A stretch of 63,365 nt of DNA, counting the filler, from a bacterium (GTDB lineage Bacteria; JADJOY01): assembly GCA_046331705.1 (NCBI GenBank). It is 3 parts of 3 records of this genome, joined end to end, with 100 filler letters (N's around TTAATTAATTAA, not from the genome) between each part and the next. Parts side by side here need not be neighbours in the genome. Positions count along the whole stretch, not along the records: positions 25,458 to 50,609 come from JAXLQJ010000079.1; 2 more parts are not named here. One strand, 5' to 3'. Under the pieces are notes generated by a model that saw only the letters and a program-made list of their open reading frames with translations, made no database searches and had not been told where the DNA came from. Shown here one piece after another: positions 24,309 through 43,295 of this stretch (the first letter of the stretch is position 1; each line of letters starts with the position of its first letter). The translations under genes were made by a program, and so were the position numbers.

Positions 24309-25357
24309 TCAACCGAGCGTCACCTGGACGCGATGTGGGGCGCCGTCGCGTGCGATGGGGATGCGCGCCGCACCGGCGACGACGTCGAGCGCTGCGCCGT
24401 CGAGCGCCACCGCCACCACCTGCGCCGCACGTCCCGTGGGGTTCGCCACCTCGATCGCGTAGCTCGTTCGCCCATCCGGCGCGCGCCAATCGATCGCGTA
24501 TCCGGGCCAGGAGTCGGGGACGCGCGGCGCCAGCACCAGCGTGCAGCCGTTCTCGACGGTGAGCCCGAGGATCGATTCCAGCCCCACCCGCAGCATCCAG
24601 CCGGACGAGCCCGTGTACCAGGTCCAGCCGCCGCGACCGACGTGGGGCTCGACGCCGTAGATGTCCGCCACGACCACGTAGGGCTCCACCTGGTACACGT
24701 CCACGGCGGCGCGATCCCGTCCGTGATGGACGGGAGTGAGCTTGGTGAAGAGCTCGACGGCCCGCTCGCGGCGCCCCAGCTCGGCGAGGGCGCGCACCAC
24801 CCACAGCGCGGCATGGGTGTACTGGCCGCCGTTCTCGCGGATCCCCGGTAGGTACCCCTTGATGTAGCCCGGCTCGCGCGCGGTCTTGTCGAAAGGAGGC
24901 GTGAGCAGGCGGATCATGCCGGGATCGTCGAGCACCAGCTCGCGTTCCACCGCGTCCAGCGCGGCCTCGGCGCGCTCGCGCGGGGCGACGCCCGAGATCA
25001 CCGCCCACGCCTGGGCCAGCGCGTCGATGCGGCACTCGTCGTCGGCGGCCGAGCCGAGCGGCGTGCCGTCGTCGTAGTACGCGCGTCGGTACCAGGCACC
25101 GTCCCAGGTGTGTGCCTCGATGGCGCGGCGAAGCTCGTCCCGATAGGCGCGATATCGCGCCGCGCGCTCGCTCTCGCCGCGCGCCTCGGCGAGCGGCGCG
25201 AAGGCGTCGATGACGTGGACCAGGAAGAACGCCAGCCACACGCTCTCGCCACGACCCTCGCGGCCGACGCGATTCATGCCGTCGTTCCAGTCGCCGGTGC
25301 CCATGAGCGGCAGGCCGTGCGCGCCGCGGGTGAGCGAGCGATCGAGCACCCGGCAGC
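24309..25357 (-). CDS. GH94 glycoside phosphorylase catalytic domain (cyclic beta-1,2-glucan synthase NdvB/Cgs C-terminal type), 5' truncated at contig edge
   Basis: HGLPLMGTGDWNDGMNRVG, GESVWL, ENGGQYTHAA, YQVEPYV, GRGGWTWYTGS. Confidence 0.9.
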
Positions 25358-25457
25358 NNNNNNNNNNNNNNNNNNNNNNNNNNNNNNNNNNNNNNNNNNN
25401 NTTAATTAATTAANNNNNNNNNNNNNNNNNNNNNNNNNNNNNNNNNNNNNNNNNNNN
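25358..25457. other. Artificial contig-join linker (N44 TTAATTAATTAA N44)
   Basis: 12-mer with stops in all six frames flanked by Ns; unrelated truncated genes on each side. Confidence 0.97.
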
Positions 25458-26271
25458 CCAGCGCGTCGAGATCGATCGCCAGCTCGCGGGCGTACGCGGC
25501 ACCGGCGTCGGGATGGATCGTGTCCGCGAGCGGCGGCGCGGCGCCGTCGCGTGCGATCAGGTGGGCGCGGGTGATCTCGTCGGGCACGAACGCCGCGGAG
25601 GTGGCGCCGCACTCGACCGCCTGATTGGTGACGGCGCAGCGTGCGTCGAGGGGAACGCCCCCAGCCGATCGATCGAGGATCTCGATGGCGAGGCCGAGCG
25701 CGCCGTCCTCGCCCAGCTCGCGCAACATGGCGAGCGCCACGTCCTTGCCCTCGATCGCGTCGTGGTGCGGCGTGCCGTGGAGCACCAGCCGAATCGACTC
25801 GGGCACCTCCAGGATCGCGTGCCCGGTGGCGAGGATCGCCAGGATGTCGGTGGTGCCGAAACCGGTGGCGAAGCACCCGAGCGCGCCGGCCATGAGCGTG
25901 TGGGAATCGGCTCCCACCACCACCTGGCCCGGCCGGACGCGCGAGTCCTCGATGGCGAGCTGGTGGCAGATACCGCGAAAGAGCTGCTCGGTGGGCAAGC
26001 CTCGTTCGCTCAGGAAGCGTACGTATCGGTTCAGGATCGCGGCGCGTTCCGGCGTGGACGGCGGCGCGAAGTGGTCCGCCGCGAAGAGCAGCTTCTCCGC
26101 TGGGGGCAGCGGCAGCCCCAGGCGCTCGATGGTGTCGATGCCGAGCGCGAAGGTGGCGTCGTGGGCCACCACCAGATCGACCTCGATCGACTCGTAGCGA
26201 CTGCCGGGCAGCACCGGTCCGCGCGAGCGCGGTCGCAACAGCTTCTCGACGAGCGTGCGGGGCGCGGCCAT
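25458..26271 (-). CDS. Aconitase-family large subunit (LeuC/HacA/AksD type), 3' truncated
   Basis: TLVEKLL, AHD, ADHFAP, GICHQ, GADSHT.MAGALG.FATGFGTTD, VPESI, GKDV. Confidence 0.9.
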
Positions 26272-26279
26272 GCGAGCGC

Positions 26280-27536
26280 TCAGGTCGCGCCGAGCACGCC
26301 GACGCGCGCCCGCGGGACGCGCGGCTGGGCGCCGGCATCGAGGAGCGCGCGCCGCGCGGCCTCGACGGGAAGTCCGAGCGCCGTGGCGAGGTAGCGGTCG
26401 CGCTCGGCCCGGAACTCGGCGAACGCTGCGGCGCGCGTGCTCGGCTCTCGCGCCTTGAGCAGCGCGAGGGCGCGCACGAGCCCCTCCTCGTTCACCTCCA
26501 GGTCCTCGCTCTCCGCGATCGCGCGCAGCAGGCTGCGGCCGGAATGCTTCCCCACGACGATCTCGCGGCGGCGTCCCAGCCGCTCGGGTGCGAGCGGTTC
26601 GTAGGTGGTGGGCTCGCGCAGGATGCCGTGGACGTGCATGCCGGACTCGTGGCGGAACGCCGTGGCGCCGAGGATCGGCGCCTGCACGGCGATCGGGATG
26701 CCCGTGGCGGCTTCGACCGAGCGGGCCAGACCGTCGAGCGCGGTGACCTCGACGCCGCAGTCGAGGCCGAGGAGCTCGGAGCAGGCGAGCGCGACCTCGG
26801 CGAACGACGCGTGGCCGGCGCGCTCGCCGATGCCGTTCACGGTGACCGTCGGCCAGCGCGCGCCCGCCTCGATGGCGGCGATGGTGTTCGCGGTCGCCAT
26901 GCCGAAGTCGTTGTGGCAATGGATGCCGATCTCGGCCTCCGGACCCGCGAGGCGACGCAGCCGGCGCACCGCAGCCGCGGCCGCGGACGGCGTCCACACG
27001 CCGACCGTATCGCACAGGAAGAATCGCCGGATTCCCGCTGCCGAGCCGGCCGCCACCAATCCGGCGAGGTCGTCGCGGGTGGCGCGACTCGCGTCCTCGA
27101 GGACCAGCTGCGGAAGCACCCCTCGCGACTGGCAGCGCTCGGCCAGCGTCCGAACGCGGTCTTCGACCTCAGCGCGGCGGAGACGGAGGCGGTGGCGTCG
27201 CTGGATCTCGCTGGCCGGCGTGATGAGGAAGGCGGCGCGGCAACCACAGTCGGCCGCGAGATCCACGTCCCCGGCATCGAGTCGCAGCGACGCGCCGATC
27301 GTGGGGCGCGTACCGCGGGCGCTGGACTCACGGAGGAAGCGCTGCTCCTCCTCGGAGACGGCGGGCACGCACGCGTCGAGGAGCTCGAGACCGATGGCGG
27401 CGAGCTCGTCGACCAGGGCGAGCTTGCTCGCGGGCGAGAGCCACACACCCGGCGTCTGCTCGCCTTCGCGCAGCGTGGCGTCGACGAGATGCACGCGCTC
27501 GGGGGGTGCGGAGCGTCGGGACGCGGACGTGCTCAC
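26280..27536 (-). CDS. Homocitrate/isopropylmalate synthase-family (DRE-TIM) enzyme without LeuA regulatory domain
   Basis: DATLREGEQTPG, LEDASR, LCDTVG, HCHNDFGMATAN, GIGERAG, HESGMH, GKHSG; GTGA overlap with the upstream radical SAM gene; 418 aa. Confidence 0.9.
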   Translation of the reverse strand: MSTSASRRSAPPERVHLVDATLREGEQTPGVWLSPASKLALVDELAAIGLELLDACVPAVSEEEQRFLRESSARGTRPTIGASLRLDAGDVDLAADCGCRAAFLITPASEIQRRHRLRLRRAEVEDRVRTLAERCQSRGVLPQLVLEDASRATRDDLAGLVAAGSAAGIRRFFLCDTVGVWTPSAAAAAVRRLRRLAGPEAEIGIHCHNDFGMATANTIAAIEAGARWPTVTVNGIGERAGHASFAEVALACSELLGLDCGVEVTALDGLARSVEAATGIPIAVQAPILGATAFRHESGMHVHGILREPTTYEPLAPERLGRRREIVVGKHSGRSLLRAIAESEDLEVNEEGLVRALALLKAREPSTRAAAFAEFRAERDRYLATALGLPVEAARRALLDAGAQPRVPRARVGVLGAT

Positions 27537-29251
27537 GAGCCGCTCCCCGGCTCGCCAAGGGGACGAGCAACGGGTTCGAGCCAGTGGAAGCGCGCCGCTC
27601 GCTTCGGCACCTCGGCGGCGACGGCGTCGTCGTAGGCGTAATCGGCGCTGAGGGTGCGGGCGGGCGCGGGCGTGCCGCGGATGGCCGCCAGCTCGCGGCG
27701 GCGTTCGAGGCAATGGGCGCGACCGCTCGCGGGCGCCACCGGCTCGCGCGGATCGGCGCTCAGGAAGCACAGGTCGGAGCACTTGAACGCCTGGACGTGG
27801 CGCTCGAAATCCGCGATCGAGCCGTCGTCGCGCTGGTCGCCGAAGTAGTCGAGCACCTTGAAGCCGAGGCTCGAGTAGGTATCGCCGTGTTGCCCGCCGT
27901 GGACGCGGTAGTAGTCGATGAAGTCACGGCGGTCGGTGATCATGCCGCAGTCCCCGGGGCGCTCGAATTGCGGTGAGCCGGGCTCGAGCTGGACCGTCCA
28001 CACCATCACACGCCGGGCGTTCGGAAAGGAGCGCAGCCGCGCCATCTGATCGCGCGTGCGCGCTGCACCGGCCAGCGTCTCCCCCGGCAGCGCCAAGGTG
28101 TAGAACACGTCCGTCGGCACGTCTTGCTCGGCGAGCATGCGCATCGCCGTGGTCAAGGCGTGGTCGTCGTAGAACGGTTGCTTGTTGCGTCGGCGGACGT
28201 CCTCGTCGCCGGCGTCGGGCGAGAGCGCGATCGTGGAGCGAGGGCCCGGGAAGGCCCGCTTGAAGGCGCGCGCGAAGCGCTCGGTGGGCAAGCCCCACGA
28301 CTCGAAGTACCAGTCGACCTGGAGCCTTTCCCGGGCAATCGTCTCGAAGAGCGTCACGTAGTAGTCGTCGCGCTCGGGGATCGGATCGAAGCAGGTGGAG
28401 ATCGAGCGGTAGCCGTGGTCGATCGCCCTTCGCACGTCGTCGACGACGCATGCGATCGAGCGCCACTCGGGCCGCGCGGTGCCGTTCACCCGGCGCAGCG
28501 TGTCGCGATTGCCGCCGCAGAAGCTACAGCTCCACGGACAACCGCGGCCGATGAAGAGCGGGAACTTGCCGCGCCCGCTCGCCAGGCGCGCGCGATTCTG
28601 CGCCGGCCCGAGCTCGGTGGAGTAGGCGAGCGGGAAACCGAAGAGATCGGCGTACGTGTCCGCGCCGTGCAACATGCTCAGATCGCCGTAGACGAGCTCG
28701 TCGAGCGACGGGCGCGTGGTGCTCGCGGGCGTGCGGTGGATGCGACCGGTCTCGTCGCGGATCCAGGCGTCGACGAGGCCGCTGCGATCACCGCGGCGCG
28801 CTGCTGCGAGAAGGCTCGTGATCGCGCCTTCGCCGGGTCCTTGCACGATCGCGTCGATCTCGGGGACGGCGGCCAGGATCTGCTCGGCGAAGTAGCCCGC
28901 CGTGAGCCCGCCGAGGAACACCAGCGCGTCCGGAGCGCGGGCCTTGAGGCGCCGCGCGACCTCGATCACGTCGTAGGTCTGGTAGTGCCAGTAGAGAGGT
29001 AGCCCGAACGACTTCACCCGGGCGCCGTCGAGCCAGCGCACCAGGTCGAACGCGGGATCGCGGATCCACTCCACACCGAGGTGGACGATCTGCGTCCGAT
29101 AGCCGCCGCGATTCGCCCAGTTGGCGAGGGCCGGCAGGCCCATCGGCATGTAGGTGACGTTGAAGAAATCGCCCAGCGGCAGGTAGTGATTCGCTGCCTT
29201 CGGGACGTGGAGAAACAGGCAGTCGAGATCGGCGGGCGGCGAAGAAGGCAC
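27533..29251 (-). CDS. B12-binding-domain radical SAM protein (start could be up to 29311)
   Basis: PMGLPALA, LGGLTA, GPGE cobalamin-domain motifs; GRGCPWSCSFC. Confidence 0.88.
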   Translation of the reverse strand: MPSSPPADLDCLFLHVPKAANHYLPLGDFFNVTYMPMGLPALANWANRGGYRTQIVHLGVEWIRDPAFDLVRWLDGARVKSFGLPLYWHYQTYDVIEVARRLKARAPDALVFLGGLTAGYFAEQILAAVPEIDAIVQGPGEGAITSLLAAARRGDRSGLVDAWIRDETGRIHRTPASTTRPSLDELVYGDLSMLHGADTYADLFGFPLAYSTELGPAQNRARLASGRGKFPLFIGRGCPWSCSFCGGNRDTLRRVNGTARPEWRSIACVVDDVRRAIDHGYRSISTCFDPIPERDDYYVTLFETIARERLQVDWYFESWGLPTERFARAFKRAFPGPRSTIALSPDAGDEDVRRRNKQPFYDDHALTTAMRMLAEQDVPTDVFYTLALPGETLAGAARTRDQMARLRSFPNARRVMVWTVQLEPGSPQFERPGDCGMITDRRDFIDYYRVHGGQHGDTYSSLGFKVLDYFGDQRDDGSIADFERHVQAFKCSDLCFLSADPREPVAPASGRAHCLERRRELAAIRGTPAPARTLSADYAYDDAVAAEVPKRAARFHWLEPVARPLGEPGSGS

Positions 29252-29396
29252 GTCGGCAGGTGCGTGGGGGACCGCGCGCGCTACCGTACCCCTGGCCCAC
29301 TCGCCACGCAAGCGAATCGCCGCCGCGAGCGCCGAGCGCCCGTGGTGCTACCCTCGCCCCGCGCAGGCGCGGCACCAGGCCTGCCGCTTCCTCGCC

Positions 29397-30230
29397 ATGA
29401 CGAGCCTCACGCATCCCGTGCCGCCTTGCGTCGCGGTCCTCGGCGAGACCGTGCTGGGCGGTGTGCCGCTCGCCGAGCCGCTCGCGAAGCTGGGCGTCGA
29501 GGTGAGGTTCTTGGCCGGGCCCGACGCGGCCTACGAGTGGCTGCGGGGGGCACGGCGGCGGATGGCGCTGTTGGTCGTGGACTCGTCGCATCTCGACTTC
29601 GATGCGCTCGGCGTGCTGGGCTGGCTCAAGACCAAAGGACTCTTGGGCGATCGGCCGGTCTGGCTGATCGAGGATGCCTTCGAGCCCACGCCCGTCGAGA
29701 TCTGCGAGGGGTGCGGGATCACCCGCTGCGTCAGCCGCTCGTCCACCGCCGCCGACCTCGCGGCGTGGATCGGCGAGGCGCTCTTCGACGTCGCCCAGGA
29801 GAAGCGGCGTCATCCGCGCGTCGCGGTCGCGGCGCCCGTCGTCCTCGGGCTCTTCGAGAAGAAGCTCGAGGGGCTGCTCACCGACTTGAGCCTCACCGGC
29901 GCGTTCGTGGAGACGCCGGCGCCGTTCGCCGTGGACACCCGCGTCTCGTTGCGATTCCAGCTCCCGGGCGCGTCGGTGGCGAGCGCGGTGCGTGCGCGGG
30001 TGGTGCGGGTGAACGTCGCCGGATCGCGCGGGCGCCACGTCCAGCTGCGCGAGGGGATGGGTCTCGAGTTCGAGCCCTTGGCGCCCCTCGCCCGCGCCGC
30101 GATCACGGGGTATCTCGCCCGTCACGGTCCGGCGGCCAAGGCGCCCACGCTCGACGAGGAGGCGGAAACCGAGGCGCTCGATGCGCCGTCGGAGCCGCCC
30201 GTCCCCCGCGATCCGCCACGCTCGCGCTGA
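29397..30230 (+). CDS. Receiver-like domain + PilZ domain protein
   Basis: EKRRHPR (RxxxR), DLSLTG (DxSxxG), GMGLEF. Confidence 0.8.
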   Translation: MTSLTHPVPPCVAVLGETVLGGVPLAEPLAKLGVEVRFLAGPDAAYEWLRGARRRMALLVVDSSHLDFDALGVLGWLKTKGLLGDRPVWLIEDAFEPTPVEICEGCGITRCVSRSSTAADLAAWIGEALFDVAQEKRRHPRVAVAAPVVLGLFEKKLEGLLTDLSLTGAFVETPAPFAVDTRVSLRFQLPGASVASAVRARVVRVNVAGSRGRHVQLREGMGLEFEPLAPLARAAITGYLARHGPAAKAPTLDEEAETEALDAPSEPPVPRDPPRSR

Positions 30231-31468: not shown

Positions 31469-33091
31469 TCAGGCGGTCTCGGACGCGACGGGCACGGTGC
31501 CGGGAGCGGTTCCGGCCATCGGCCTGCGTGCGAGCTCGGAGATCGGCCGCTTCACCTTCACGCGCACCAAGGTGTCGAGGTTGCTCACCTCGCGACCGGT
31601 GAGGAGGCTTCGGATCACGTCGAAGAATCGCCACGGCCGGCTCGCGTACGCCATCAGATAGAACGAAACCAGGAAGAAGTACTGGACGGCGAAGAGCGCG
31701 CGCGTGCTCAGGTAGGGGTTGTACGTCACGCTGCTCAGCCCCGACCGCACCAGCGCCGCGTAGTGATAGGCCGGCGTCATCTCCACCTTGCCGGCTTGCC
31801 AGAGCTCGTCGAAGTCGGCGCTTCCCGGATACGGCGCGAACACCATGACCGAAGCGTCGCGGCAACCGGCCAACGCGGCCCGCAGCAGGAACTTGTACGA
31901 CTGCCACAGATCGCGCGGCTTCTCGTGGGGATGACCGATGATGAGGTTGATGCGCGTGACGATGCCGAGCTTGTGCGCGGTCTTGAGCGACTCCTCGAGC
32001 CGCGGGATCTTCACCTTCTTCTTGATTCGACCGAGCTGATCGGCGGAGCCGCTCTCCGGCGCGTAGGTGATGTTTCGGCATCCCGTCTCGTAGGCCAGCG
32101 CGAGCACGTCGTGATCGAGGGCCTCCGAGCGGGTGCCCGCGGGGAGCTGCCACGCGATGTCGAGCTTCGCTTCCTTGAGCCGGGTCACGAAATCGAGCGC
32201 CCAGTCCCGCTTCACGAACGCGGTCAGATCACAGAAGTTGATGTTCTCGACGCCGTAGCGGCGGACGTAGCTCGCCATCTCGTCGACCACGTCCGCGGGA
32301 TCGCGCGCCACGTAGCGCGTGGTCCACATGTCCGGCGACGAGCAGAACGTACACTGATACGGACAGCCGCGTGTCGCCAGCATCGGCATGGACCGGCCGC
32401 GATTCACACCGAAGGTGTCGGCGACGTTCATGTAGTCCTCGACCGGGAAGAGATCCCAAGCCGGGCGCGGGAAGGCGTCGACGTCGATGGCGCGCGGGGA
32501 AAGCGCGGGCACGTTGGAGGGTGTCCGCGAGCGTTTCACGGCGATGCCGGTGAGGTCGTCGAGGGATTCGCCGTCGGCCACGCGCCGGACCAGCTCGGCC
32601 ATGGTGAGCTCGCCCTCGCCGAGCACGCAGCAATCGACCGCGTCGGTTTGCTCGAAGATCCAGCGTCGATAGGCGGTGGCATTCTCGCCGCCGAGCACGA
32701 TCGTCGCCTTCGGGAATCGCGCGCGCGCGCGCTCCGCGATCTCGCGCACCATCGGCCATTCGTGGAGGAACATGTGGCTGACGCCGATCACCTGCGTGTC
32801 GGCGTCGATCCGTTCGACGATCTCCTCCGGATTGAGCCCGTTGAGCTCGAGCACGCCGATGGGGCTCGGCTGCGGACGGAACAGATCGAGAGCCGCGCCG
32901 GGCGCGTCGATCACCTGGATGCGGTGACCCTCGCGACGCAGCACCGCCGCCACGTAGGCGATGCCGATGGGGAGGATGACGCCGAACGAGCTCAGACTCC
33001 GCGTCATCTTGAGGATCGGCGGGCGCACCAGGGTGACCTTCACGCCACCTTGCGAACCGCTCGCGACCGTCGCGGATTCAGCTGACGTCAT
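31469..33091 (-). CDS. B12-binding-domain radical SAM protein
   Basis: PIGIAYVAA, LGGENAT, GEGE, TRGCPYQCTFC, APESGS. Confidence 0.92.
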   Translation of the reverse strand: MTSAESATVASGSQGGVKVTLVRPPILKMTRSLSSFGVILPIGIAYVAAVLRREGHRIQVIDAPGAALDLFRPQPSPIGVLELNGLNPEEIVERIDADTQVIGVSHMFLHEWPMVREIAERARARFPKATIVLGGENATAYRRWIFEQTDAVDCCVLGEGELTMAELVRRVADGESLDDLTGIAVKRSRTPSNVPALSPRAIDVDAFPRPAWDLFPVEDYMNVADTFGVNRGRSMPMLATRGCPYQCTFCSSPDMWTTRYVARDPADVVDEMASYVRRYGVENINFCDLTAFVKRDWALDFVTRLKEAKLDIAWQLPAGTRSEALDHDVLALAYETGCRNITYAPESGSADQLGRIKKKVKIPRLEESLKTAHKLGIVTRINLIIGHPHEKPRDLWQSYKFLLRAALAGCRDASVMVFAPYPGSADFDELWQAGKVEMTPAYHYAALVRSGLSSVTYNPYLSTRALFAVQYFFLVSFYLMAYASRPWRFFDVIRSLLTGREVSNLDTLVRVKVKRPISELARRPMAGTAPGTVPVASETA

Positions 33092-33125
33092 CGGAAATCA
33101 GACTAGTGACGCGGCCGAAGTCGCG

Positions 33126-34007
33126 TCAAATGGAGCGCTGCCGAAACCCCAGCAGCCGCTGGAACCGAAACGACAGGACGTGGGCGCACACCGACAGCGT
33201 CTTCAGCCCGTAGAGCACGCTCATCTTCAGATTGACGCTCGACGCCTCGCGGAAATAGCGCGTCTCGACGGGGATCTCCTCCAGCCGAAAGCCGCCCGTG
33301 ACGATCTGTCCCACCACCTCGGAGTCGAAGCCGAAGCCGTTCGAGTTCGACATGAAGGGGATCGACTCCAGGAAGTGCCGGCTGTAGGCACGCAGCCCCG
33401 TGTGGTACTCGCTCATCCGGCGGTTGAAGACGAGGTTCTCGATGGTCGTGAGGAAGCGATTGCCGAGATACTTGTAGAGCGGCATGCCGCCCGCCAGCGC
33501 GCCGCCCCGCGTGGCGAGCCGCGAGCCGAACACCACGTCGGCGCGACCGCTCACGATCGGAGCGATGAGATCGGGCAGCACGCGCGGATCGTACTGGTAG
33601 TCCGGGTGCACCATGACGATCACGTCTGCGCCGCGGTGCAAGGCGGCCGTGTAGCAGGTCTTCTGGTTGCCGCCGTAGCCGCGGTTCTCGGGGTGCACGA
33701 TCACGTGGATCCCGAGCTGGCGTGCCTTCTCGACGGTGGCATCGTGACTCGCGTCGTCGACCAGGATGATGTCGTTGACGACGTGCTTGGGAATGTCCGC
33801 GTAGGTGCGTTCGAGGGTCTTCGCGGCGTTGTAGGCGGGCAGGACCACGGTCACCCGGCGCACCGGCGCCGCGGCTGCGGCGACATCTCCAGCCGACCGC
33901 GGAGCGGTCCGGCTCGCATCGACGTCCGTCGCGGTGTGCACGGAGAGCGGGGCGTGAGTCACGGGGGTTGGCCGGTCCTTGCGAGCGCGTGCGGAACGAT
34001 CCGTCAC
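33126..34007 (-). CDS. GT2 glycosyltransferase (DPM synthase-like)
   Basis: VLPAYNA, LVDDAS, NRGYGGNQK, HPDYQYDP, FGSR; GTGA overlap with the upstream stop. Confidence 0.92.
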   Translation of the reverse strand: MTDRSARARKDRPTPVTHAPLSVHTATDVDASRTAPRSAGDVAAAAAPVRRVTVVLPAYNAAKTLERTYADIPKHVVNDIILVDDASHDATVEKARQLGIHVIVHPENRGYGGNQKTCYTAALHRGADVIVMVHPDYQYDPRVLPDLIAPIVSGRADVVFGSRLATRGGALAGGMPLYKYLGNRFLTTIENLVFNRRMSEYHTGLRAYSRHFLESIPFMSNSNGFGFDSEVVGQIVTGGFRLEEIPVETRYFREASSVNLKMSVLYGLKTLSVCAHVLSFRFQRLLGFRQRSI

Positions 34008-35410
34008 GGATGGGTGAGCACCTGCAGCCCGCGCCGGGTGTAGTTCCACAGCTTCACGGGCGAGTCGATCGAGCGCAGCGTTCGGGCGAGATAGCTCGGA
34101 CGCAGGTAGAACGAGCGCATCGCGCGGGTCTGGATCTTCTTGAGCTCGGCCGCGGTCAGCGCATAGCTGCGCGACACCGCCTGCTTCACGTTGCGTCCGG
34201 CGAGGCGTTCCTCGCCGAGCAAGCCTTCCTCGGTACAGATCTCGTGCAAGGGCGTGCCCGGGAACGGATAGGCGATGTGGAACTCGCAGAAATCACCGTC
34301 GAGCTTGCGCGCGAAATCGATGGTTTCCTGCGCGGTCTCGGCGGTCTCCCACGGGCTGCCGAGCACCCAGAAGAGGTAGGTCTTGAGCCCCACGTCCTTG
34401 CACGCCTGGATGGCCTTCTCCGCCTGCCCGAGCGTCGCGCCTTTCTTCATGTGGCGAAGGATCTCTTGATTGCCGGACTCGACGCCGAAGCCCACCATCC
34501 AGCAGCCGGCCTTGCGCATCTCCCGCGCACGCTCGGGGTCCATGGTGTCGACGCGGCTGTTGCAGACCCACTCCACGTCGAGGCGCGCCTCTTGGATGCG
34601 GCGGCAGAGCTCGATCGTCCACGACTTCTGCAGGGTGAAGGTGTCGGCGCGGAAGTAGAAGTTGCGGATCCCGAACCGGGTCACGCAATGCTGCATCTCC
34701 GCGACGATGCTGCCCGGTGAGCGCAGGTACGTATCGAAGCCGCTCAGCGTCGGCACCAGGCAATAGATACAACGCGCCGGACACCCGCGACTCGTCTGGA
34801 TCGTGGTCTGCGGCTCGCCCGTATCCGGGCGAATGTACAGGCGGTTGTTCATGAGGTGGCGGGCGGGCCAGGGAAGGCTGTCGAGCTGCTCGAGGCGCGG
34901 ACGATCCGCGTTGCGGCGGATCTCCCCATTCTCGCGGTAGCTGATGCCGAGCACGCTCGAGCGGTCGGTGGTGGTCAGCAGCTCGCCCAACAACTCCTCG
35001 CATTCGCCGCGGATCGCGACGTCGAGCTCCGGATGGGATGCGAGCGTTTCCGCGTCGTGAGTGGTGACGTGCGCGCCCTTGGCGATCGTGAGGACGTGAG
35101 GATTGCGCGCCTTCGCCCGCTGGCAGGCTGCCATGTCCCCCGGCAGCGTCGGGGTGGTCGTGCTGACGGCGAGCAGATCCGGCTGGAACACATCGAGGTC
35201 GAGCTCGAAATCGTCCCAGCCGAGCCCCTCCGCCGGATAGTCGACGATGCGCGCTTCCCATCCCACCTGCTCGACCATGGCGGCCATGTAGGCGAGGTCG
35301 ATGGGGGCGCGCAGGACGCTGGTCGAGTTCTCGACCGGGACCTGACAACGATCGTCCCGGATGTAGTTGCCGGTCGGCGGGTTGATGAAGAGGGCGCGTC
35401 GCGCTGGCAT
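34004..35410 (-). CDS. B12-binding-domain radical SAM protein (HpnJ/BchE-like superfamily)
   Basis: LFINPP, PIDLAYMAA, GAHVT, RGECE, TSRGCPARCIYC, FGVESG, PFPGTPL. Confidence 0.92.
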   Translation of the reverse strand: MPARRALFINPPTGNYIRDDRCQVPVENSTSVLRAPIDLAYMAAMVEQVGWEARIVDYPAEGLGWDDFELDLDVFQPDLLAVSTTTPTLPGDMAACQRAKARNPHVLTIAKGAHVTTHDAETLASHPELDVAIRGECEELLGELLTTTDRSSVLGISYRENGEIRRNADRPRLEQLDSLPWPARHLMNNRLYIRPDTGEPQTTIQTSRGCPARCIYCLVPTLSGFDTYLRSPGSIVAEMQHCVTRFGIRNFYFRADTFTLQKSWTIELCRRIQEARLDVEWVCNSRVDTMDPERAREMRKAGCWMVGFGVESGNQEILRHMKKGATLGQAEKAIQACKDVGLKTYLFWVLGSPWETAETAQETIDFARKLDGDFCEFHIAYPFPGTPLHEICTEEGLLGEERLAGRNVKQAVSRSYALTAAELKKIQTRAMRSFYLRPSYLARTLRSIDSPVKLWNYTRRGLQVLTHP

Positions 35411-35585
35411 GTGGATCGTTCCGACCGAGAGCGGACTGGTGAGCATCTCGCGCCGGCGACTCCGGGAACCGACGGCGAAACGCCTCGAATCGAAAGGCCA
35501 ATGTTAGCGTCGCCGCCGCTTCGACCGCAAGCGAAGCGGGTCTTCGCCTTGGGGACGTGCGCCGCGCGGCGCCTGCGGACGTGGA

Positions 35586-35615
35586 TTGACAGGGTGCGTC
35601 ATCGTGCCGTAGCTT
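35586..35615 (+). promoter_or_regulatory. Putative sigma70 promoter of the glycan operon
   Basis: TTGACA-N18-TAGCTT, 140 bp upstream of the 35755 start. Confidence 0.55.
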
Positions 35616-35754
35616 CCGCTCGCGTTTCTGGACCCGCCTGCTCCGGCGCGCTGGCGCGCCGGCGATGCGGCCCCCACGCGAGCGCGTCCGCAGCGTCGGC
35701 CAACCCCTGGTCCGCGGATGCGTTCGACACCCCTGAGCCCAGGGGAGCGATTCG

Positions 35755-36813
35755 TTGAGCGCCACCATCGACACGACCGCCGGCTCCGCGTCGCCCGACG
35801 CTCCCCGTGAGCGCGCTCGCGCGGGTCGCGGTTGGCGAGAGATCCTGGCCGTCGCGCTGACGATCGGGCTGGTGTGGTGGCTGCTGCGCGGCCTCGAGTG
35901 GGAGAAGATTCGCACCTTCGCCGCGAACATCCGCGCCGAGCTGGTGGTCGCGGCGTTCGCGATCTACGCGCTCAGCTACGTGGCGCGCGCGCTGCGCTGG
36001 CAAGTGTTGCTGCAGCGGCACGACCTGAGCTTTCGCGAGCTCTACCTCATCACGGCCGCGCACATCATGTACAACAACCTGTTGCCCAGCCGCATCGGCG
36101 AGCTCTCCTACGTGGTGCTGCTGAAGCAGAAGAAGGGTCTCTCCGCCGCCGATGGGGTCGTCTCGCTCGTGGTGTCGCGCTTCCTCGACTTCATCACCCT
36201 GGGTCTCATCTTCTTACTCTCGGTGGCCTCGTTTCGCGGCGCCCACTCGGTGGAGGCGTTTCGCAACCTGCCGCTGGTGGCGGTCAGCAGCGTGGTCCTG
36301 CTCTCCGGTGGGCTGGTCGCCATGCCCGCGCTCACGAGTCGCTTCCATCGCTGGTTGAATCGTGAGCTCGCCAGCGCGCCGCCGGAATCGTTCCGCGCCA
36401 AGGTCGAGCGCACCGCCGAGCGCATGGTGGAGACCTTCGAGCGCACCGCGGGAACGTCGAGCTATCTGAAGGCGGGGCTGCTCTCGCTGGTGATCTGGTA
36501 CGCGAAGTTCCTGTCGTTCACGCTCATGGTGCACGCCATGCACGATGCCGGCACGGCGTCACGCATGAGCTTCTGGGGCGTCGTCATCGGGTCGACGGCG
36601 GCGGAGCTCACGACCATCACACCGTTCCACGGCGTGGCGGGGATGGGCACCTACGAATGGGCGTGGAAGGTGGTCTTCCACGACGTGCTGGGCATCGACG
36701 AGCAGGTCTCGATCCTGACCGGCTTCGGCGTCCACGTCTTCCTGCTCTTCTTCTCGATCGTGCTCGGAGGGCTCGCGTACCTCGGCCTGCGTCGCATCAC
36801 GCGCCGCGCCTGA
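35755..36813 (+). CDS. Lysylphosphatidylglycerol synthase TM / UPF0104 flippase-like protein
   Basis: RALRW, NNLLPSRIGEL, RFLD, GMGTYE; multiple TM segments. Confidence 0.88.
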   Translation: MSATIDTTAGSASPDAPRERARAGRGWREILAVALTIGLVWWLLRGLEWEKIRTFAANIRAELVVAAFAIYALSYVARALRWQVLLQRHDLSFRELYLITAAHIMYNNLLPSRIGELSYVVLLKQKKGLSAADGVVSLVVSRFLDFITLGLIFLLSVASFRGAHSVEAFRNLPLVAVSSVVLLSGGLVAMPALTSRFHRWLNRELASAPPESFRAKVERTAERMVETFERTAGTSSYLKAGLLSLVIWYAKFLSFTLMVHAMHDAGTASRMSFWGVVIGSTAAELTTITPFHGVAGMGTYEWAWKVVFHDVLGIDEQVSILTGFGVHVFLLFFSIVLGGLAYLGLRRITRRA

Positions 36814-36882
36814 GCGCGCGAGACGATGGGGTGATGCGGGCCCGCGCGCGTCGGGCGGCGCGACCGTGAGCGGAAAGACCTC

Positions 36883-37446
36883 GTGGCGACACCGTTCGGA
36901 CACCTGACGATCGGCACCGCATGGGCGCTGGTGTGCGCGGACCGACCCGCGTCGCCGCGCTTGCTCGCACTCGGCGCCGCGAGCGCCGCGGCCGCCGATC
37001 TCGATTTCCTGCCGGGGCTGCTGCTCGGCGATCCAGCCCGATTCCACCACGGCGCGAGTCATTCGGTGCTCGTGATGCTGGTGGCGTCGGCGCTCGTGCT
37101 CGCCGCTTGGCGCACACGCGCGCCGGTCGGCGGGCGTGGGGTGCTGCTCGTGACCGGCGCGTTTCTGAGTCATCTGGGTGCCGATTGGGTCACGCACGAT
37201 CCCGGCGTGCGCCAGGGATTGCCGCTCGCATGGCCGCTCTCCTCGGCTCGCAGCTTGGGTCCGGTGTGGCTGGTGCCCGCCGTGGCGCGCGCGTGGCCGC
37301 CGACGTGGGAATGGCTCGCGCACACCGCGTGGCTCGTGATCACCGAGCTGGCCTTGGTGTTGCCGCTCTTGCTGGGCGCATGGATCCACGCCGGGCGCCC
37401 GGGTTCGTCGTGGGCTCGCTGGGGAAACGGAGGGATACCCGCATGA
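36883..37446 (+). CDS. Membrane-bound metal-dependent hydrolase (YdjM/YbcI family)
   Basis: TPFGH, DLD, HHGASHS, SHLGAD, G.PLAWP. Confidence 0.85.
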   Translation: MATPFGHLTIGTAWALVCADRPASPRLLALGAASAAAADLDFLPGLLLGDPARFHHGASHSVLVMLVASALVLAAWRTRAPVGGRGVLLVTGAFLSHLGADWVTHDPGVRQGLPLAWPLSSARSLGPVWLVPAVARAWPPTWEWLAHTAWLVITELALVLPLLLGAWIHAGRPGSSWARWGNGGIPA

Positions 37447-38447
37447 AACCGACGTCCGCACGAGCGGAAGCGCCGAACACGCCATCGCGGCCGATGATCT
37501 CGGTGGTGATTCCCGTCTACAACGAGATCGAGAACATCGACGCGCTGGCCACGGACGTGTGGTCGGCGCTGGGAGCGATCGGCAAGAGCTTCGAGGTGAT
37601 CCTGGTCGACGACGGCTCGCGCGACGGCACCGTCGACGCGCTCCGGCGCGTCGCCGCCGCGAGACCCGAGGCGCGCGTGGTGCTGCTGCGGCGGAACTTC
37701 GGTCAGACGGCAGCGCTCAGCGCCGGCTTCGACCACGCCCGCGGCGAGGTGATCATCACCATGGACGCGGACCTCCAGAACGATCCCCAGGACATCCCCA
37801 AGCTGCTCGAGGGAATCGAACAGGGCTACGACATCGTCGCGGGCTGGCGACTCCATCGCAAGGACCCGTTCGTGAGCCGGCGTTTGCCTTCGATGATCGC
37901 CAACCGGCTCATCTCGGCGGTCACGGGTGTCAGCCTGCACGACTACGGCTGCACGCTGAAGGCGTTTCGGGCCGACGTGGTCCAGCAGGTGCGTCTTTAC
38001 GGCGAGCTGCACCGCTTCATTCCGGCGGTCGCGAACTGGATGGGCGTGAGCGTCCACGAGGTTCCGGTCAACCACCGCCCGCGCCGCGCGGGCGTCTCGA
38101 AGTACGGCATCTCGCGAACGGTGCGCGTCATCCTGGACCTGATCACGGTCAAGTTCATGGAGTCGTACTCCACGAAGCCGATCCAGATCTTCGGCCTGCT
38201 CGGGATCATGTCCGGGTTCGTCGGCTTCCTGGGCGCCGCCTGGCTCTCGGTGCAGCGCGTGTTCTGGGGCGTGAGCCTCTCCAATCGCCCGATCCTGCTG
38301 CTCTACGTGATGCTCATCCTGGTGGGTGTCCAGTTCATCAGCATGGGCCTGGTCGCCGAGATGCTCGCGCGCACCTACCACGAGTCGCAGTCGAAGCCGA
38401 TCTACTACGTCAAGGAGCTGATCGAGCCCCAGCCGACGAGCGGCTGA
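37443..38447 (+). CDS. GT2 polyprenyl-phosphate glycosyltransferase (ArnC/GtrB-like)
   Basis: VIPVYNE, DDGS, RNFGQTAA, DADLQNDP, HRFIP; two C-terminal TM helices. Confidence 0.92.
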   Translation: MKPTSARAEAPNTPSRPMISVVIPVYNEIENIDALATDVWSALGAIGKSFEVILVDDGSRDGTVDALRRVAAARPEARVVLLRRNFGQTAALSAGFDHARGEVIITMDADLQNDPQDIPKLLEGIEQGYDIVAGWRLHRKDPFVSRRLPSMIANRLISAVTGVSLHDYGCTLKAFRADVVQQVRLYGELHRFIPAVANWMGVSVHEVPVNHRPRRAGVSKYGISRTVRVILDLITVKFMESYSTKPIQIFGLLGIMSGFVGFLGAAWLSVQRVFWGVSLSNRPILLLYVMLILVGVQFISMGLVAEMLARTYHESQSKPIYYVKELIEPQPTSG

Positions 38448-38519
38448 GCAGGGCGACGGCGCAGGGCGAGGCGCGTGCGCGCGGCATGGGCGGCGCGCAC
38501 GGCAGGGACGAGTGCTCGC

Positions 38520-39650
38520 ATGCGAATCGGAATCGACGCCCGGCTCGCGTTCGGCGACTCGACGGGGCTCGGCACGTTCAGCCGCCGCCTGGTCGACGCG
38601 CTCAGCCGTCACGACTCCGGCAACGAGTACGTGCTCTACGTCGATCGTCCGACGCCGCCCGTCGAGCTGCCGGAGAACGTCCGCGTCGAGCTGGTACCGG
38701 GCCAGAGCCGAATCGCCTGGACGAACCTGCGCCTACCGCGCGTCCTTCGCCGCGACCGGATCGACCTCTACCACGCGGTCGCGAACTTCGAGCTGCCGCT
38801 CGCGTTCCGCGGCCTCAAGGTGCTCACCGTCCACGACCTCGTGCCGCTGCGCTTCCCGGCGACCGTGCCGTGGAAGCACCGACTCTTCTTCCATCTGTTC
38901 ACGCGCCCGGCGCTCGCCGCCGCGGACCGGATCGTCGCCATCTCCGCGCACACGCGCGACGAGATCGTCGCCGCCTACGGCATTCCCGCGGCCTCCATCG
39001 ACGTCGTGCCCAACTGGGTGACCGAGGCGTTCCACCCGCGCCAGCGGGACACGAGTCGGGAAACCGGGGCGCCCCGCGCCCGCTCGCGTCATGGGCTCGT
39101 CGACGACTACTTCGTGTTCGTCGGGGTGCGCGAGCCGAAAAAGAACCTCGATCGGCTGCTCGAGGCGTTCGCGGCGCTGGGATCGCCTCGCGGGCGCCGC
39201 TGCCAACTCGCCCTCGTCGGGCCGCCGGGCTGGAGCACCGACGACCTCGAGGGGCGCGTGCGTTCGCTGGGAATCGGCGACCGGGTGGTGTTCACGGGCC
39301 GTGTCCCGGAGGCCGACCTGATCGAGCTCTTGCAGGATGCGCGCGCGCTCGTCTTCCCGTCGCTCAGCGAGGGCTTCGGATTGCCGGTGCTCGAGGCGAT
39401 GGCGTGCGGGACGGCCGTCATCGCGGCGCGCGCGGGCGCGCTGCCGGAGGTGGCCGGCGACGCGGCGCTCCTCGTCGACCCGCTCGCCGTGAGCGACATC
39501 GCCGCGGCGATGGCCCGCTTGCTCGAGGACGAGGAGCTCGCGCGTGTGCTCGGTGCACGCGGCCAAGCCCGTGCGGGCCGCTGGAACGCCGCAGCCGCGG
39601 CCGAGCGCTGGGTCGCGCTCTATCTCGAATTGTTCAACGCCGTGCCATGA
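38520..39650 (+). CDS. GT4 glycosyltransferase
   Basis: MRIGIDAR, TVHDL, KKNL, EGFGLPVLEAMACG. Confidence 0.93.
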   Translation: MRIGIDARLAFGDSTGLGTFSRRLVDALSRHDSGNEYVLYVDRPTPPVELPENVRVELVPGQSRIAWTNLRLPRVLRRDRIDLYHAVANFELPLAFRGLKVLTVHDLVPLRFPATVPWKHRLFFHLFTRPALAAADRIVAISAHTRDEIVAAYGIPAASIDVVPNWVTEAFHPRQRDTSRETGAPRARSRHGLVDDYFVFVGVREPKKNLDRLLEAFAALGSPRGRRCQLALVGPPGWSTDDLEGRVRSLGIGDRVVFTGRVPEADLIELLQDARALVFPSLSEGFGLPVLEAMACGTAVIAARAGALPEVAGDAALLVDPLAVSDIAAAMARLLEDEELARVLGARGQARAGRWNAAAAAERWVALYLELFNAVP

Positions 39651-40813
39651 GCGCGCTCGTCGCGCTGGATGCCCGCTGGATTCGCCCCGGGCGCGTCGAC
39701 GGGGTGGGGCGTTACGTCGCTTCGCTGGCGCACGAGCTGGTGCGGCTCGAGGGCGACGAACGCTACGCGCTGCTCTTCGCCGACGCGGCGCTTCGCGACG
39801 CCTTTCGCGAGCGAGCGGGCGCCGTCGGCGCCGCGGAGCTGTGGGTTTGCGAGATCCCGCTGCTCGGCGCCGCGGATGCGTTGTGCTTGCCACGGTGGCT
39901 GCGCGAGCGGCGGATCGACTTGATCCACGTTCCGCACGTGCTCACGTCGCCGTTTCATCGTGGCTACCGGACCGTGCTCACGTTGCACGACCTGATCCCG
40001 TGGCAGGCACGTGGCCGCGAACCCGGCGCGCGGCTGGTGTGGCGTGCGTATTTCGCCACCTGGTGGCCGCTGCGCTGCACGCTCGGCCGCGTGAGCCGGG
40101 TGATCGCCGTCTCCAACGCCACGCGCGACGCGCTGCAGACGCATGCGTGGATGCGCGTACCCGTGGAGGTGGTGCCCAATGGCGTCGATCTCGGATTCGC
40201 TGCCGGCGCCGGCTCGCGGGGCGAGACGAGCGCGAGGCTCGCGCCGACGGGTCCGATCCTCTACGTCGGCCGCCTCGATCCGTACAAGAACGTCGCCGGC
40301 TGGCTGCGAGAGTACGCGACGCTGCCCACGCAGCTGCGCGAGCTCCACCCGTTGGTGCTCTGCGGCCATCACGACGCGCGCTTCGTCGAGCCTCTGGCGC
40401 GGTTGGTGAGCGAGCTCGGCCTCGCGGCGTGCGTCGAGCTGCGTGGCTCGGTCTCCGAGGCCGCGCTCGATCGCCTCTATCGCGAAGCGGCGCTCCTGGT
40501 GCATCCATCGCTGGAGGAAGGGTTCGGGCTCACGGTGCTCGAGGCGATGGCTCGCGGCACGCCGGTCGTCGCGTATCGGATCCCCGCGCTCGCGGAGATG
40601 GCCGCGGACGCCGCTTGCCTGGTCGATCCGCGCGAACCCGGTGCGCTGGCGGGCGCCGTGGCCGCAGTGCTCGGTTCGCCGCTCGCGTGGGCGCGCCTCG
40701 CCAGCGCGGGGCGCGCCCGCGCCGAGCGCTTCTCGTGGCGGCGCGCGGCGCTCGCCACGCGCGAGGTCTACCGCGCGGCGCTCGCGGCCTCGCCGCTCGG
40801 AGTCGGGCGATGA
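39647..40813 (+). CDS. GT4 glycosyltransferase
   Basis: LDAR, TLHDL, YKN, EEGFGLTVLEAMARG; ATGA overlap. Confidence 0.93.
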   Translation: MSALVALDARWIRPGRVDGVGRYVASLAHELVRLEGDERYALLFADAALRDAFRERAGAVGAAELWVCEIPLLGAADALCLPRWLRERRIDLIHVPHVLTSPFHRGYRTVLTLHDLIPWQARGREPGARLVWRAYFATWWPLRCTLGRVSRVIAVSNATRDALQTHAWMRVPVEVVPNGVDLGFAAGAGSRGETSARLAPTGPILYVGRLDPYKNVAGWLREYATLPTQLRELHPLVLCGHHDARFVEPLARLVSELGLAACVELRGSVSEAALDRLYREAALLVHPSLEEGFGLTVLEAMARGTPVVAYRIPALAEMAADAACLVDPREPGALAGAVAAVLGSPLAWARLASAGRARAERFSWRRAALATREVYRAALAASPLGVGR

Positions 40814-41913
40814 CGCGCGGGGCGGGCAACGCGCCACACGTGCTGATCGACGCCCGCAAGGCGTTCGATGGTGGCATCGGGAGGCATTTGCGCGAGACCG
40901 CGCTGCTGCTGCCCGCGGAGCTTCCCGGTTGGCGATTGAGCCTGCTCGTCGATACCGGCGCCGGGGAGCGATTCACCGCCGCCGGTCTCGGCGCGCCGGC
41001 GTTCGCGCACGTCGAGGTGACCGCGAGGAAGTACGGCCTCGCCGAGCCCGCCACGCTGCGCCGGATCGCCGCGCGCATGCGACCGGATCTCTTTCACACG
41101 CCGCACTACGTGCTGCCCGCGGGCATGCCGTGCCCGTCGGTGGTGACCATCCACGACGTGATCCACCTCAAGCGCCCCCGCACGCCGCTGCACCGCTGGT
41201 ACGCCACCCTGCGGATGCGGACGGCATGCCGCGAAGCGCGCTGCGTGATCACCGTCTCCCACGCGAGTGCCGCGGACCTCCGCCGATTCGTCCCCGTCGA
41301 GCCGCGGCGGCTGCGGGTGATCCCGAACGGCGCGCGCATCGTCGAGCGTCCGGCGACACCCGTGACGCCGAACGGCTACGTGCTCTACGTCGGCAGCCTG
41401 AAGCCGCACAAGAACGTGACGACGCTCCTCGATGGCTTCGCGCGGACGCAGGACGACCGCGAGCTGTGGCTCGCAGGTCAATGGCAGCGCGAGGAGCGAT
41501 ATCGTCGCGACCTGACGGCACGGGTGAGGGCCGCCGGGCTCGAGCGCCGGGTGCGCTTCATCGCGGGCTTTCCCGAGTCGAGCCTGGATCGGCTGCTCTT
41601 CGGCGCGTTGGTGCTGGTGGCACCGTCGTGGGAAGAGGGTTTCGGGCTACCGGCGCTGGAGGCGCTCGCGCACGGCACGCCAGTGATCGCCAGCAGGCGC
41701 GGCGCCTATCCGGAGGTGCTGGCGGACGCGGCGCTCTTCGTGGACGGCGCCGATCCCGCGGAGATCGCGGTGGCGATCGAGGCGGTGGCCGCGCGTTCGG
41801 CGGCGGAATCCATGCGCTGGTCCCACGCGGCCCGCGCTCGCGCCCGGCAATTCGATTGGGCTGCCGCGGCCCGCGCCACGGCCGCGGTCTACCACGAGAT
41901 CCTCAACGGGTAG
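40810..41913 (+). CDS. GT4 glycosyltransferase
   Basis: IDARK, TIHD, PHKN, EEGFGLPALEALAHG; ATGA overlap. Confidence 0.93.
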   Translation: MTRGAGNAPHVLIDARKAFDGGIGRHLRETALLLPAELPGWRLSLLVDTGAGERFTAAGLGAPAFAHVEVTARKYGLAEPATLRRIAARMRPDLFHTPHYVLPAGMPCPSVVTIHDVIHLKRPRTPLHRWYATLRMRTACREARCVITVSHASAADLRRFVPVEPRRLRVIPNGARIVERPATPVTPNGYVLYVGSLKPHKNVTTLLDGFARTQDDRELWLAGQWQREERYRRDLTARVRAAGLERRVRFIAGFPESSLDRLLFGALVLVAPSWEEGFGLPALEALAHGTPVIASRRGAYPEVLADAALFVDGADPAEIAVAIEAVAARSAAESMRWSHAARARARQFDWAAAARATAAVYHEILNG

Positions 41914-41926
41914 CGGTGTCGGACGG

Positions 41927-43288: not shown

Positions 43289-43295
43289 CCCCGCC

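Follow-up and report, generated by a model that had tools for sequence, protein, structure and literature searches.

A conserved seven-gene cassette joining a B12-binding radical SAM enzyme, alkylmalate-type enzymes and a LuxE/LuxC-like pair

Introduction

Elongation of 2-oxoacids proceeds through modules in which a synthase of the DRE-TIM family is followed by a two-subunit isomerase of the aconitase family and a β-decarboxylating dehydrogenase. Such modules include LeuA/LeuCD/LeuB, the homocitrate synthase, homoaconitase and homoisocitrate dehydrogenase (HICDH) of lysine and coenzyme B biosynthesis (AksADEF), and HphA/HphCD/HphB of homophenylalanine biosynthesis. A stretch of bacterial DNA of 63,365 bases (GenBank assembly GCA_046331705.1; hereafter the window) carries genes for a synthase and an isomerase large subunit of this kind directly behind a gene for a class B radical S-adenosylmethionine (SAM) enzyme, that is, one with a B12-binding domain. 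These three genes are the 5′ part of a conserved seven-gene operon, the cassette described here, which is separate from the housekeeping genes and has its catalytic motifs intact. The cassette shares with the known modules the succession of synthase and two-subunit isomerase, with motifs kept, but differs from them in having no β-decarboxylating dehydrogenase, a synthase pocket of its own and a LeuD recognition loop reading YFFS, and in its coupling to a radical SAM enzyme, a flavoprotein and a LuxE/LuxC pair.

The last two cassette genes resemble the LuxC-LuxE fatty acid reductase of luminous bacteria (PDB structure 7xc6). In that system a thioester is relayed from Cys364 of LuxE to Cys296 of LuxC and is then reduced with NADPH to the aldehyde (PMC12041015). 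Both thioester cysteines of the cassette proteins align to those of 7xc6 and are kept in 22 and 24 orthologues of the LuxC-like and LuxE-like proteins, but the cassette pair is accompanied by neither LuxD nor luciferase and lies in an operon with alkylmalate enzymes.

The radical SAM enzyme shares the B12-binding domain and radical SAM barrel of the class B methyltransferases TsrM, MgmA, CysS and TokK (structural matches at E 2.6e-19 to 4.8e-14), from which it differs by a sequence identity of 13-19% and an extra C-terminal domain with a cysteine triad. Its best curated family is TIGR04190 (Ta0216 family B12-binding/radical SAM protein, function unknown), but with 141.9 bits it falls short of the 500 that membership requires. 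The flavoprotein has the fold and flavin adenine dinucleotide (FAD) motifs of the thioredoxin reductases, a fold that extends to ferredoxin-dependent flavin thioredoxin reductase (FFTR) and the ferredoxin-NADP reductases of thioredoxin reductase type. In contrast to these, it has no CxxC, a degenerate or deleted second GxGxxG and about 100 more residues at the C-terminus. In the phosphinothricin and FR-900098 pathways (PhpK; Pms/Pmi; FrbC/FrbA), a B12 radical SAM enzyme co-occurs with homocitrate-synthase-like and aconitase-like enzymes. The cassette departs from these pathways in that no phosphoenolpyruvate (PEP) mutase scores over the cut-off in any of five cassette genomes, and LuxE, LuxC and the flavoprotein are present instead.

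A full-text search of open papers for the gene combination, for TIGR04190/Ta0216 and for LuxC/LuxE with an aminotransferase in Myxococcus returned nothing on the cassette, and the open papers searched hold no mention of the TIGR04190 family. The cassette thus appears to be a conserved combination of familiar enzyme families without a description in the literature searched. On present evidence it is one of the many orphan metabolic clusters found in metagenomes. That it has stayed a single tight operon in organisms whose labels span several phyla argues for a defined, useful product. Solving it would give a function to a clade of a radical SAM family with 629 clusters and no known chemistry, a substrate to a non-luminous LuxE/LuxC pair and a role to a new flavoprotein family.

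Organization of the locus

The window consists of three contigs that are joined by blocks of N and are not neighbours in the genome. Each joint is artificial and strandless and is made of 44 N, TTAATTAATTAA and another 44 N; the first spans 25358-25457 (N at 25358-25401 and 25414-25457) and the second 50610-50709. Genes near the joints are therefore cut, and the C-terminal part of the LeuC-like gene, together with the genes downstream of it, is lost at 25358-25457.

The operon part lies at the very start of the second contig, within its first 3.8 kb, and all three genes are on the minus strand. First stands the class B radical SAM gene (27533-29311), of 592 codons from a TTG start at 29311; the GTG at 29251, chosen as start in the initial annotation, is an alternative in the same frame. 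It is followed by the gene for a 2-alkylmalate-type synthase of the DRE-TIM family (HMGL-like plus HCS_D2; 26280-27536), of 418 codons from a GTG start. The radical SAM stop codon TGA (27535-27533) overlaps this GTG (27536-27534) in a GTGA at 27536-27533, and GGGGAG sits 6-11 nt upstream of the GTG. The synthase ends in a TGA at 26282-26280, and 8 nt further on begins the ATG (26271-26269) of a gene for an aconitase-family large subunit of LeuC/HacA type (25458-26271), of which the first 271 codons are present in a frame open to the contig end at 25458. The initial annotation had described this overlap and this spacing, had assigned the three genes to the B12-radical SAM, DRE-TIM synthase and aconitase types, and had the rest of the operon lost at the contig edge. 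All of this holds: Pfam agrees for all three gene types, and relatives supply four more genes.

Upstream, a divergent intergenic region (29312-29396) separates the radical SAM gene from a PilZ-domain gene on the plus strand (29397-30230). From the ORF (open reading frame) layout, this region is presumed to contain the promoter of the operon. A scan of 29150-29450 for sigma-70 consensus sequences and terminators found none. Rfam models at the gathering score, run on the window and on the loci L004, L050 and L057 of relatives, returned one tRNA and no riboswitch, and nothing in 29312-29396.

A conserved seven-gene cassette

The cassette was followed through 36 loci of relatives. In five of these the radical SAM protein is 73-84% identical (one genome per species), and in the other 31, which come from an alignment-based scan, 43-59%. 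In one of them, L004, the operon continues after LeuC with LeuD, a 443-residue flavoprotein (Pyr_redox_2), a LuxE-like acyl-protein synthetase and a LuxC-like acyl reductase, and the seven L004 proteins were mapped on all 36 loci by tblastn. All seven genes (radical SAM, synthase, LeuC, LeuD, flavoprotein, LuxE-like and LuxC-like) are present in 24 of the 36, and 7 further loci end at most 258 nt from the last cassette gene found. The synthase gene directly follows the radical SAM gene in 34/36 loci, which makes the arrangement more than chance; the conservation of this linkage in other genomes, on which the initial annotation had made its reading depend, is thereby established.

Gene order is permuted in two of the 24 complete loci. 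L048 reads synthase-LeuC-LeuD-radical SAM-flavoprotein-LuxE-LuxC, and L055 reads flavoprotein-LuxE-LuxC-radical SAM-synthase-LeuC-LeuD. Both keep three blocks whole, namely synthase-LeuC-LeuD, the radical SAM gene, and flavoprotein-LuxE-LuxC. Cassette genes abut or overlap (median estimated gaps of at most 3 nt), which leaves no room for a hidden small gene inside the cassette. Clustering of all ORFs of at least 90 residues from the 36 loci revealed no other family common to distant loci, and the neighbours proved unrelated when 64 ORFs flanking 16 of the loci were analysed with Pfam; TetR regulators and sensor kinases are among them. Several kinds of neighbour had been suggested beforehand as worth a search. 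LeuD is indeed conserved; no conserved aminotransferase, peptide or peptidase gene lies beside the cassette (36 loci; Pfam on the flanks), and PEP mutase (TIGR02320) exceeds its cut-off in 0/5 cassette genomes, with a top score of 101 against 319.55 bits. A LeuB-like gene is likewise absent from the cassette: genes of the Iso_dh family are present in the five genomes searched, and none of them lies in it.

In a paralogue clade of the radical SAM protein, of about 35% identity (63 loci, L081-L143, mostly labelled Syntrophaceae or Thermodesulfobacteriota), cassette partners occur in 0/63 loci. The flanks of these paralogues have a lipid flavour, with genes for an MMPL transporter, a protein of the flavin amine-oxidase family, MlaE/MlaF/MlaD and often a second B12 radical SAM enzyme.

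Submitters label the cassette loci as Myxococcota or Deltaproteobacteria, Gemmatimonadota, Hydrogenedentota, Binatia and others. The closest relatives of the window belong to the phylum of genome G001, in which all five species representatives (G001, G002, G003, G006 and G007) carry a LuxC of the cassette type. In the phylum of genome G004, some LuxC-like gene is found in 103/401 sampled genomes. About 11 of these have one at E <= 4e-65 (cassette type), a number too small for a core pathway, and the LuxC-like genes of the rest belong to a different module.

Three related loci, L057, L059 and L060, have genes for a two-subunit 2-oxoacid:ferredoxin oxidoreductase and a TetR regulator directly upstream of the cassette. 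This enzyme could supply reduced ferredoxin locally or consume a 2-oxoacid product. A GDSL lipase gene lies upstream of the cassette in L059 and L060 and was not seen in L057.

Proposed pathway

We propose that the cassette encodes a dedicated pathway of the alkylmalate type, with a radical and probably methylating step, that ends in the reduction of a carboxylate to an aldehyde; judged from family chemistry, we give this reading a probability of about 0.6. The synthase would form a 2-alkylmalate from acetyl-CoA and a 2-oxoacid other than 2-oxoglutarate, whose side chain is probably neutral (step 1). LeuCD would dehydrate and rehydrate this product to an alkylmaleate or a 3-alkylmalate (step 2). 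The flavoprotein, in which neither a redox-active CxxC nor an NAD(P)H motif can be recognised, may perform a flavin-dependent redox reaction on the di-acid or pass electrons to the radical SAM enzyme (step 3). LuxE would then activate one carboxylate with ATP and hold it as a thioester on its C-terminal cysteine (step 4a), from which LuxC would take it onto its own cysteine and reduce it to the aldehyde (step 4b). The radical SAM enzyme, with cobalamin and SAM, would act on an unactivated carbon, either in the precursor or in the thioester-bound intermediate, and most likely methylate it (step 5). The pathway would thus yield a small aldehyde with a methyl branch, or an acid semialdehyde of this kind. 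We infer all of these chemical steps, their order and the substrate.

The initial annotation had suggested a specialised pathway leading to an oxoacid or an amino acid, among other products. The specialised nature of the pathway stands, and its end has shifted: since the genes missing from the window are those of LeuD, the flavoprotein, LuxE and LuxC, the pathway most likely ends in an aldehyde rather than an oxoacid or amino acid.

Several points weigh against this proposal. The window itself holds just the first three genes of the seven, and all 36 loci come from metagenome-assembled genomes. Five of the 36 loci (L046, L047, L058, L059 and L060) are locally incomplete despite room for the missing genes. 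A LuxE-LuxC pair of the cassette type lies elsewhere in the genome in 4/5 genomes with an incomplete locus, and a search of the remaining one, G409, did not find a LuxC of this type. The cassette contains no LeuB-like dehydrogenase, so that true chain elongation would need a borrowed enzyme or the flavoprotein. The nearest folds of the latter are thioredoxin reductases, ferredoxin-dependent flavin thioredoxin reductase and ferredoxin-NADP reductases of thioredoxin reductase type. Class B radical SAM enzymes include non-methylating members, and the fold matches contain two of these, AprD4 and OxsB. Finally, monophyly of the cassette synthases is not supported by the tree, which requires 3 changes and has the long branches of L048, L063, L068 and L071 in an unresolved backbone.

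A bolder version of the alkylmalate proposal, which we regard as speculative and rather doubtful, makes the pathway independent of LeuB. Here the new flavoprotein family would replace the dehydrogenase, and the radical SAM enzyme would methylate or remodel the intermediate held by LuxE as a thioester, giving a new class of small branched aldehydes spread by horizontal transfer. A parallel for action on a LuxE-held intermediate is offered by CysS and TokK, which act on pantetheinyl thioesters. If this version were true, the aldehyde would serve as a signal, as the precursor of a cofactor or as a building block of lipids among uncultured bacteria labelled Myxococcota, Gemmatimonadota, Hydrogenedentota and Binatia.

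The radical SAM enzyme

The radical SAM protein matches the Pfam families Radical_SAM (PF04055, 41.6 bits; cut-off 29.5) and B12-binding (PF02310, 33.9 bits; cut-off 32.1), the latter scoring 26.2 bits, under the cut-off, in the L004 orthologue. The motif DCLFLHVPK lies at its N-terminus, and the CX3CX2C motif for the [4Fe-4S] cluster (C258/C262/C265) is invariant in 24/24 aligned homologues. A second set of cysteines, CX3CX18C (C511/C515/C534), lies in the C-terminal helical domain (encoded at about 27710-27781, minus strand) and is kept in 24/24 sequences of the cassette clade and 16-18/18 of the paralogue clade. This triad may form a second metal or iron-sulfur site; we know of no such site in the solved class B methylases.

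A sequence search against solved structures gave 0 matches. The structure model (predicted local distance difference test score, pLDDT, of 87) has the class B fold, with TsrM, MgmA, CysS, TokK, AprD4 and OxsB as top Foldseek matches. All solved class B enzymes match it along the entire chain, methyltransferases ranking first, and the alignments to TsrM, MgmA, CysS, TokK and OxsB span 460-610 columns. Judged from these fold relatives, the step catalysed is most likely a methylation, which is also the commonest chemistry of class B radical SAM enzymes.

Overlapping with this proposal is a reading of the same pathway with a radical SAM enzyme that does something other than methyl transfer, namely a rearrangement, cyclisation, dehydration or insertion of sulfur or carbon, possibly by way of a second metal site at the cysteine triad. 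The presence of AprD4 (a dehydratase) and OxsB (ring contraction) among the whole-length matches is consistent with it, as are the conservation of the extra triad, the distance from every curated family, and HpnJ and BchE, which are class B enzymes that do not methylate. Set against this are the best fold matches, all four of which are methyltransferases, the recognisable B12-binding domain and the prevalence of methylation in the class. We therefore hold a non-methylating enzyme to be a tentative possibility.

The family to which the enzyme belongs is large. At E <= 1e-30, the profile of the cassette radical SAM protein retrieves 629 clusters (50% identity) among 1.84 billion representatives, and just a handful exceed 600 bits; the cassette enzyme is thus one small clade of a larger family, itself uncharacterised and related to TIGR04190. 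TIGR04190 is also the best curated family for the paralogues of 35% identity, and the homologues P0068-P0120 score 137.8-223 bits against it.

The flavoprotein and the LuxE/LuxC pair

The flavoprotein model (pLDDT 85) has the fold of a low-molecular-weight thioredoxin reductase, with structural matches at a Foldseek E of 1e-18 and VIA Z scores of 18-20. The lack of CxxC and the degenerate or deleted second glycine motif recur throughout the 16 sequences aligned. Against the thioredoxin reductase model TIGR01292 it scores 65.4 bits (cut-off 343.45), and members of the family carry PF07992 without PF00070. In a search with a profile of the flavoprotein, about 75 cluster representatives reach at least 288 bits, after which scores drop to the 113 bits of ordinary thioredoxin reductases. 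Judged by these profiles, the flavoprotein is a family of its own and specific to the cassette. Its matches in the ESM Atlas are generic FAD/NAD(P)-binding clusters only, and a contig scan with the flavoprotein alignment, whose patterns were over-generic, returned 39 loci of ordinary thioredoxin reductase type (23-43% identity) and no cassette locus, and is uninformative on context. A complex prediction for the LuxC-like protein and the flavoprotein scored 0.00 in two runs, which has no bearing on whether the two bind.

The LuxC and LuxE orthologues of the relatives match Pfam PF05893 with 233.6 bits and PF04443 with 37.5 bits, respectively. Their sole solved relatives are LuxC and LuxE of 7xc6 (E 1.8e-12 and 9.7e-11). 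Both lie far under the equivalogs of bioluminescence, LuxC with 66.7 against 750 bits (NF052251) and LuxE with 45.9 against 550 bits (NF052244).

The main rival to the alkylmalate proposal starts from this pair and has the cassette make or tailor a branched acyl chain that is released as a fatty aldehyde for membrane lipids. LuxE and LuxC would act as a classical fatty acid reductase and the radical SAM enzyme would methylate the alkyl chain; the synthase and LeuCD would provide a branched primer by 2-oxoacid elongation with the cell's own LeuB. The sole characterised LuxE/LuxC pair reduces long-chain fatty acids (PMC12041015). The YFFS of the LeuD recognition loop is hydrophobic, the paralogue clade of 35% identity adjoins MMPL, MlaE/MlaF/MlaD and a gene of the flavin amine-oxidase family, and a set of genes for an HpnJ-like radical SAM enzyme, a GT2, a B12 radical SAM enzyme and an HpnL-like protein lies about 2 kb off in the window and its five closest relatives. 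Such neighbours are, however, not conserved in the 31 more distant loci; genes for an acyl carrier protein, a ketosynthase, an acyltransferase or a lipid transporter are absent from the cassette, and the orthologues remain far under the bioluminescence equivalogs. On balance, a lipid pathway seems unlikely.

A different LuxE-LuxC pair is common in the phylum of G004 (L161-L178 and L183-L190), with a LuxC 25-33% identical to that of the cassette. Eight such loci yielded 95 ORFs, of which 38 were analysed with Pfam. A class III aminotransferase adjoins this other pair in 5/6 Pfam-scanned loci, and some loci have an adjacent B12 radical SAM gene with DUF4070 and an MFS or MatE exporter. The pair and its aminotransferase look like a module that would convert an acid to an aldehyde and then to an amine, of which we know no description.

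The synthase and the LeuCD isomerase

The window synthase matches Pfam HMGL-like (PF00682, 193.2 bits) and HCS_D2 (PF22617, 68.4 bits), and no LeuA regulatory domain is among its Pfam matches, in line with what the initial annotation had observed. The LREGEQ, HxH and DTVG motifs are conserved in the 34 cassette synthases, as expected of a Claisen-condensing DRE-TIM enzyme. Comparison with the characterised families rests on hidden Markov model (HMM) cut-offs, none of which the synthase reaches among the curated NCBIfam models: NifV (TIGR02660) scores 328.5 bits against 462.9, archaeal LEU1 294.6 against 484.75, LysS (TIGR02146) 233.2 against 413.55, LeuA (TIGR00973) 191.4 against 598.7 and CimA 127.8 against 450.

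Three pocket positions, picked from alignments to solved structures, distinguish the families. Two solved homocitrate synthases (6ktq and 3a9i) have H, R and T or S, and three solved isopropylmalate synthases have L or I, then E, then G, S or F. In the 34 cassette synthases the first position is S (32/34), the second N, E, Q or another residue and the third V (28/34); the window synthase has S83, Q143 and V145. The H/R/S positions we take to be His72, Arg133 and Ser135 of the Thermus homocitrate synthase, which bind the distal carboxylate of 2-oxoglutarate. The earlier description of the enzyme as homocitrate-synthase-like thus stands for its top HMM score, that of NifV, and fails at the cut-off and at the pocket, where the three positions have become S, variable and V.

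The LeuC-like fragment scores 120.5 bits with Pfam Aconitase and 196 with NCBIfam TIGR02086. Against NF001614 it reaches 189.8 bits (cut-off 385), its cluster cysteines falling beyond the contig end; the full-length L004 orthologue reaches 408.8 bits. In the LeuC of relatives, GADSHT and the three cysteine ligands of the [4Fe-4S] cluster are retained; SCAGG and CGACGG are conserved. The LeuD of relatives (Aconitase_C) keeps GSSRE and has the recognition loop HPSYFFSLDP, without arginine. According to an earlier study, this loop sets substrate preference (PMC7308503). Together, the synthase pocket and the LeuD loop point to a 2-oxoacid without a distal carboxylate.

A careful maximum-likelihood tree was built from 52 synthases, a set without characterised NifV, AksA, CimA or FrbC sequences. 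The window synthase groups with those of L001-L005 (support 100/100), apart from the LeuA of G001, which forms a separate long branch with a second LeuA-like protein. Cassette synthases cluster in the tree, 0/500 label shuffles being as low. P0146, a non-cassette synthase from Nostocales cyanobacterium HT-58-2 that lies on a contig of 7.8 Mb and is 42% identical, is nested inside one group of cassette synthases with support of 100/100. The match lists of the radical SAM enzyme and the flavoprotein hold no entry from a 7.8 Mb contig such as this.

These data bear on a housekeeping role, in which the synthase and isomerase would serve a standard or alternative synthesis of leucine, isoleucine (by way of citramalate) or lysine (by way of α-aminoadipate) and neighbour the radical SAM gene by chance. 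NifV, LeuA, archaeal LEU1 and the LeuC/HacA families are the top HMM matches, as such a role would have it. The question of a second copy was addressed in relatives. In G001, the genome of L005, whose radical SAM protein is 75% identical to that of the window, canonical LeuA (TIGR00973, 718.3 bits; cut-off 598.7), LeuC (TIGR00170, 647.5 bits; cut-off 560.25) and AcnA (TIGR01341, 1377 bits; cut-off 945) are encoded away from the cassette. The initial annotation's view of the cassette enzymes as extra copies is borne out by this relative. Scores under every equivalog cut-off, the loss of the H/R/(S,T) positions of homocitrate synthase, the LeuD loop without arginine, the conserved linkage to radical SAM, flavoprotein, LuxE and LuxC genes, and the scarcity of the cassette-type LuxC (about 11/401 genomes of one phylum) likewise argue against a housekeeping role, which we consider very improbable.

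Still less credible is a phosphonate or phosphinate pathway like those of phosphinothricin and FR-900098, with the radical SAM enzyme methylating phosphorus: the same three enzyme types co-occur there and the enzyme has a weak match to the P-methyltransferase family NF038361 (29.8 bits; cut-off 575), but PEP mutase is over its cut-off in none of the five cassette genomes and is found nowhere among the conserved neighbours, and those pathways contain nothing that corresponds to LuxE or LuxC. A pathway to a ribosomally synthesized and post-translationally modified peptide (RiPP) or other peptide is rejected, as no conserved precursor gene or peptidase lies in or beside the cassette.

Other genes in the window

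A set of genes conserved in L001-L005 is located some 2 kb upstream of the operon. It consists of a B12 radical SAM gene (31469-33091) and a GT2 glycosyltransferase gene (33126-34049), both on the minus strand, an HpnJ-like B12 radical SAM gene (34004-35446, minus strand) and a gene for a membrane protein of LPG_synthase_TM/HpnL-like type (35755-36813, plus strand). The HpnJ-like protein is not a true hopanoid HpnJ, its TIGR03471 score of 262.6 bits lying under the cut-off of 577.6. By its gene content, the set at 31469-36813 looks like a system for the modification of glycolipid head groups. Polysaccharide genes follow at 36870-49307, encoding a GT2, two GT4, a Bac_transf priming transferase, a UDP-glucose/GDP-mannose dehydrogenase, a signal peptidase and a Poly_export/SLBB protein. 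On the other side of the first joint, the first contig ends in a fragment of a GH94 catalytic domain of the cellobiose/chitobiose phosphorylase type (24309-25349).

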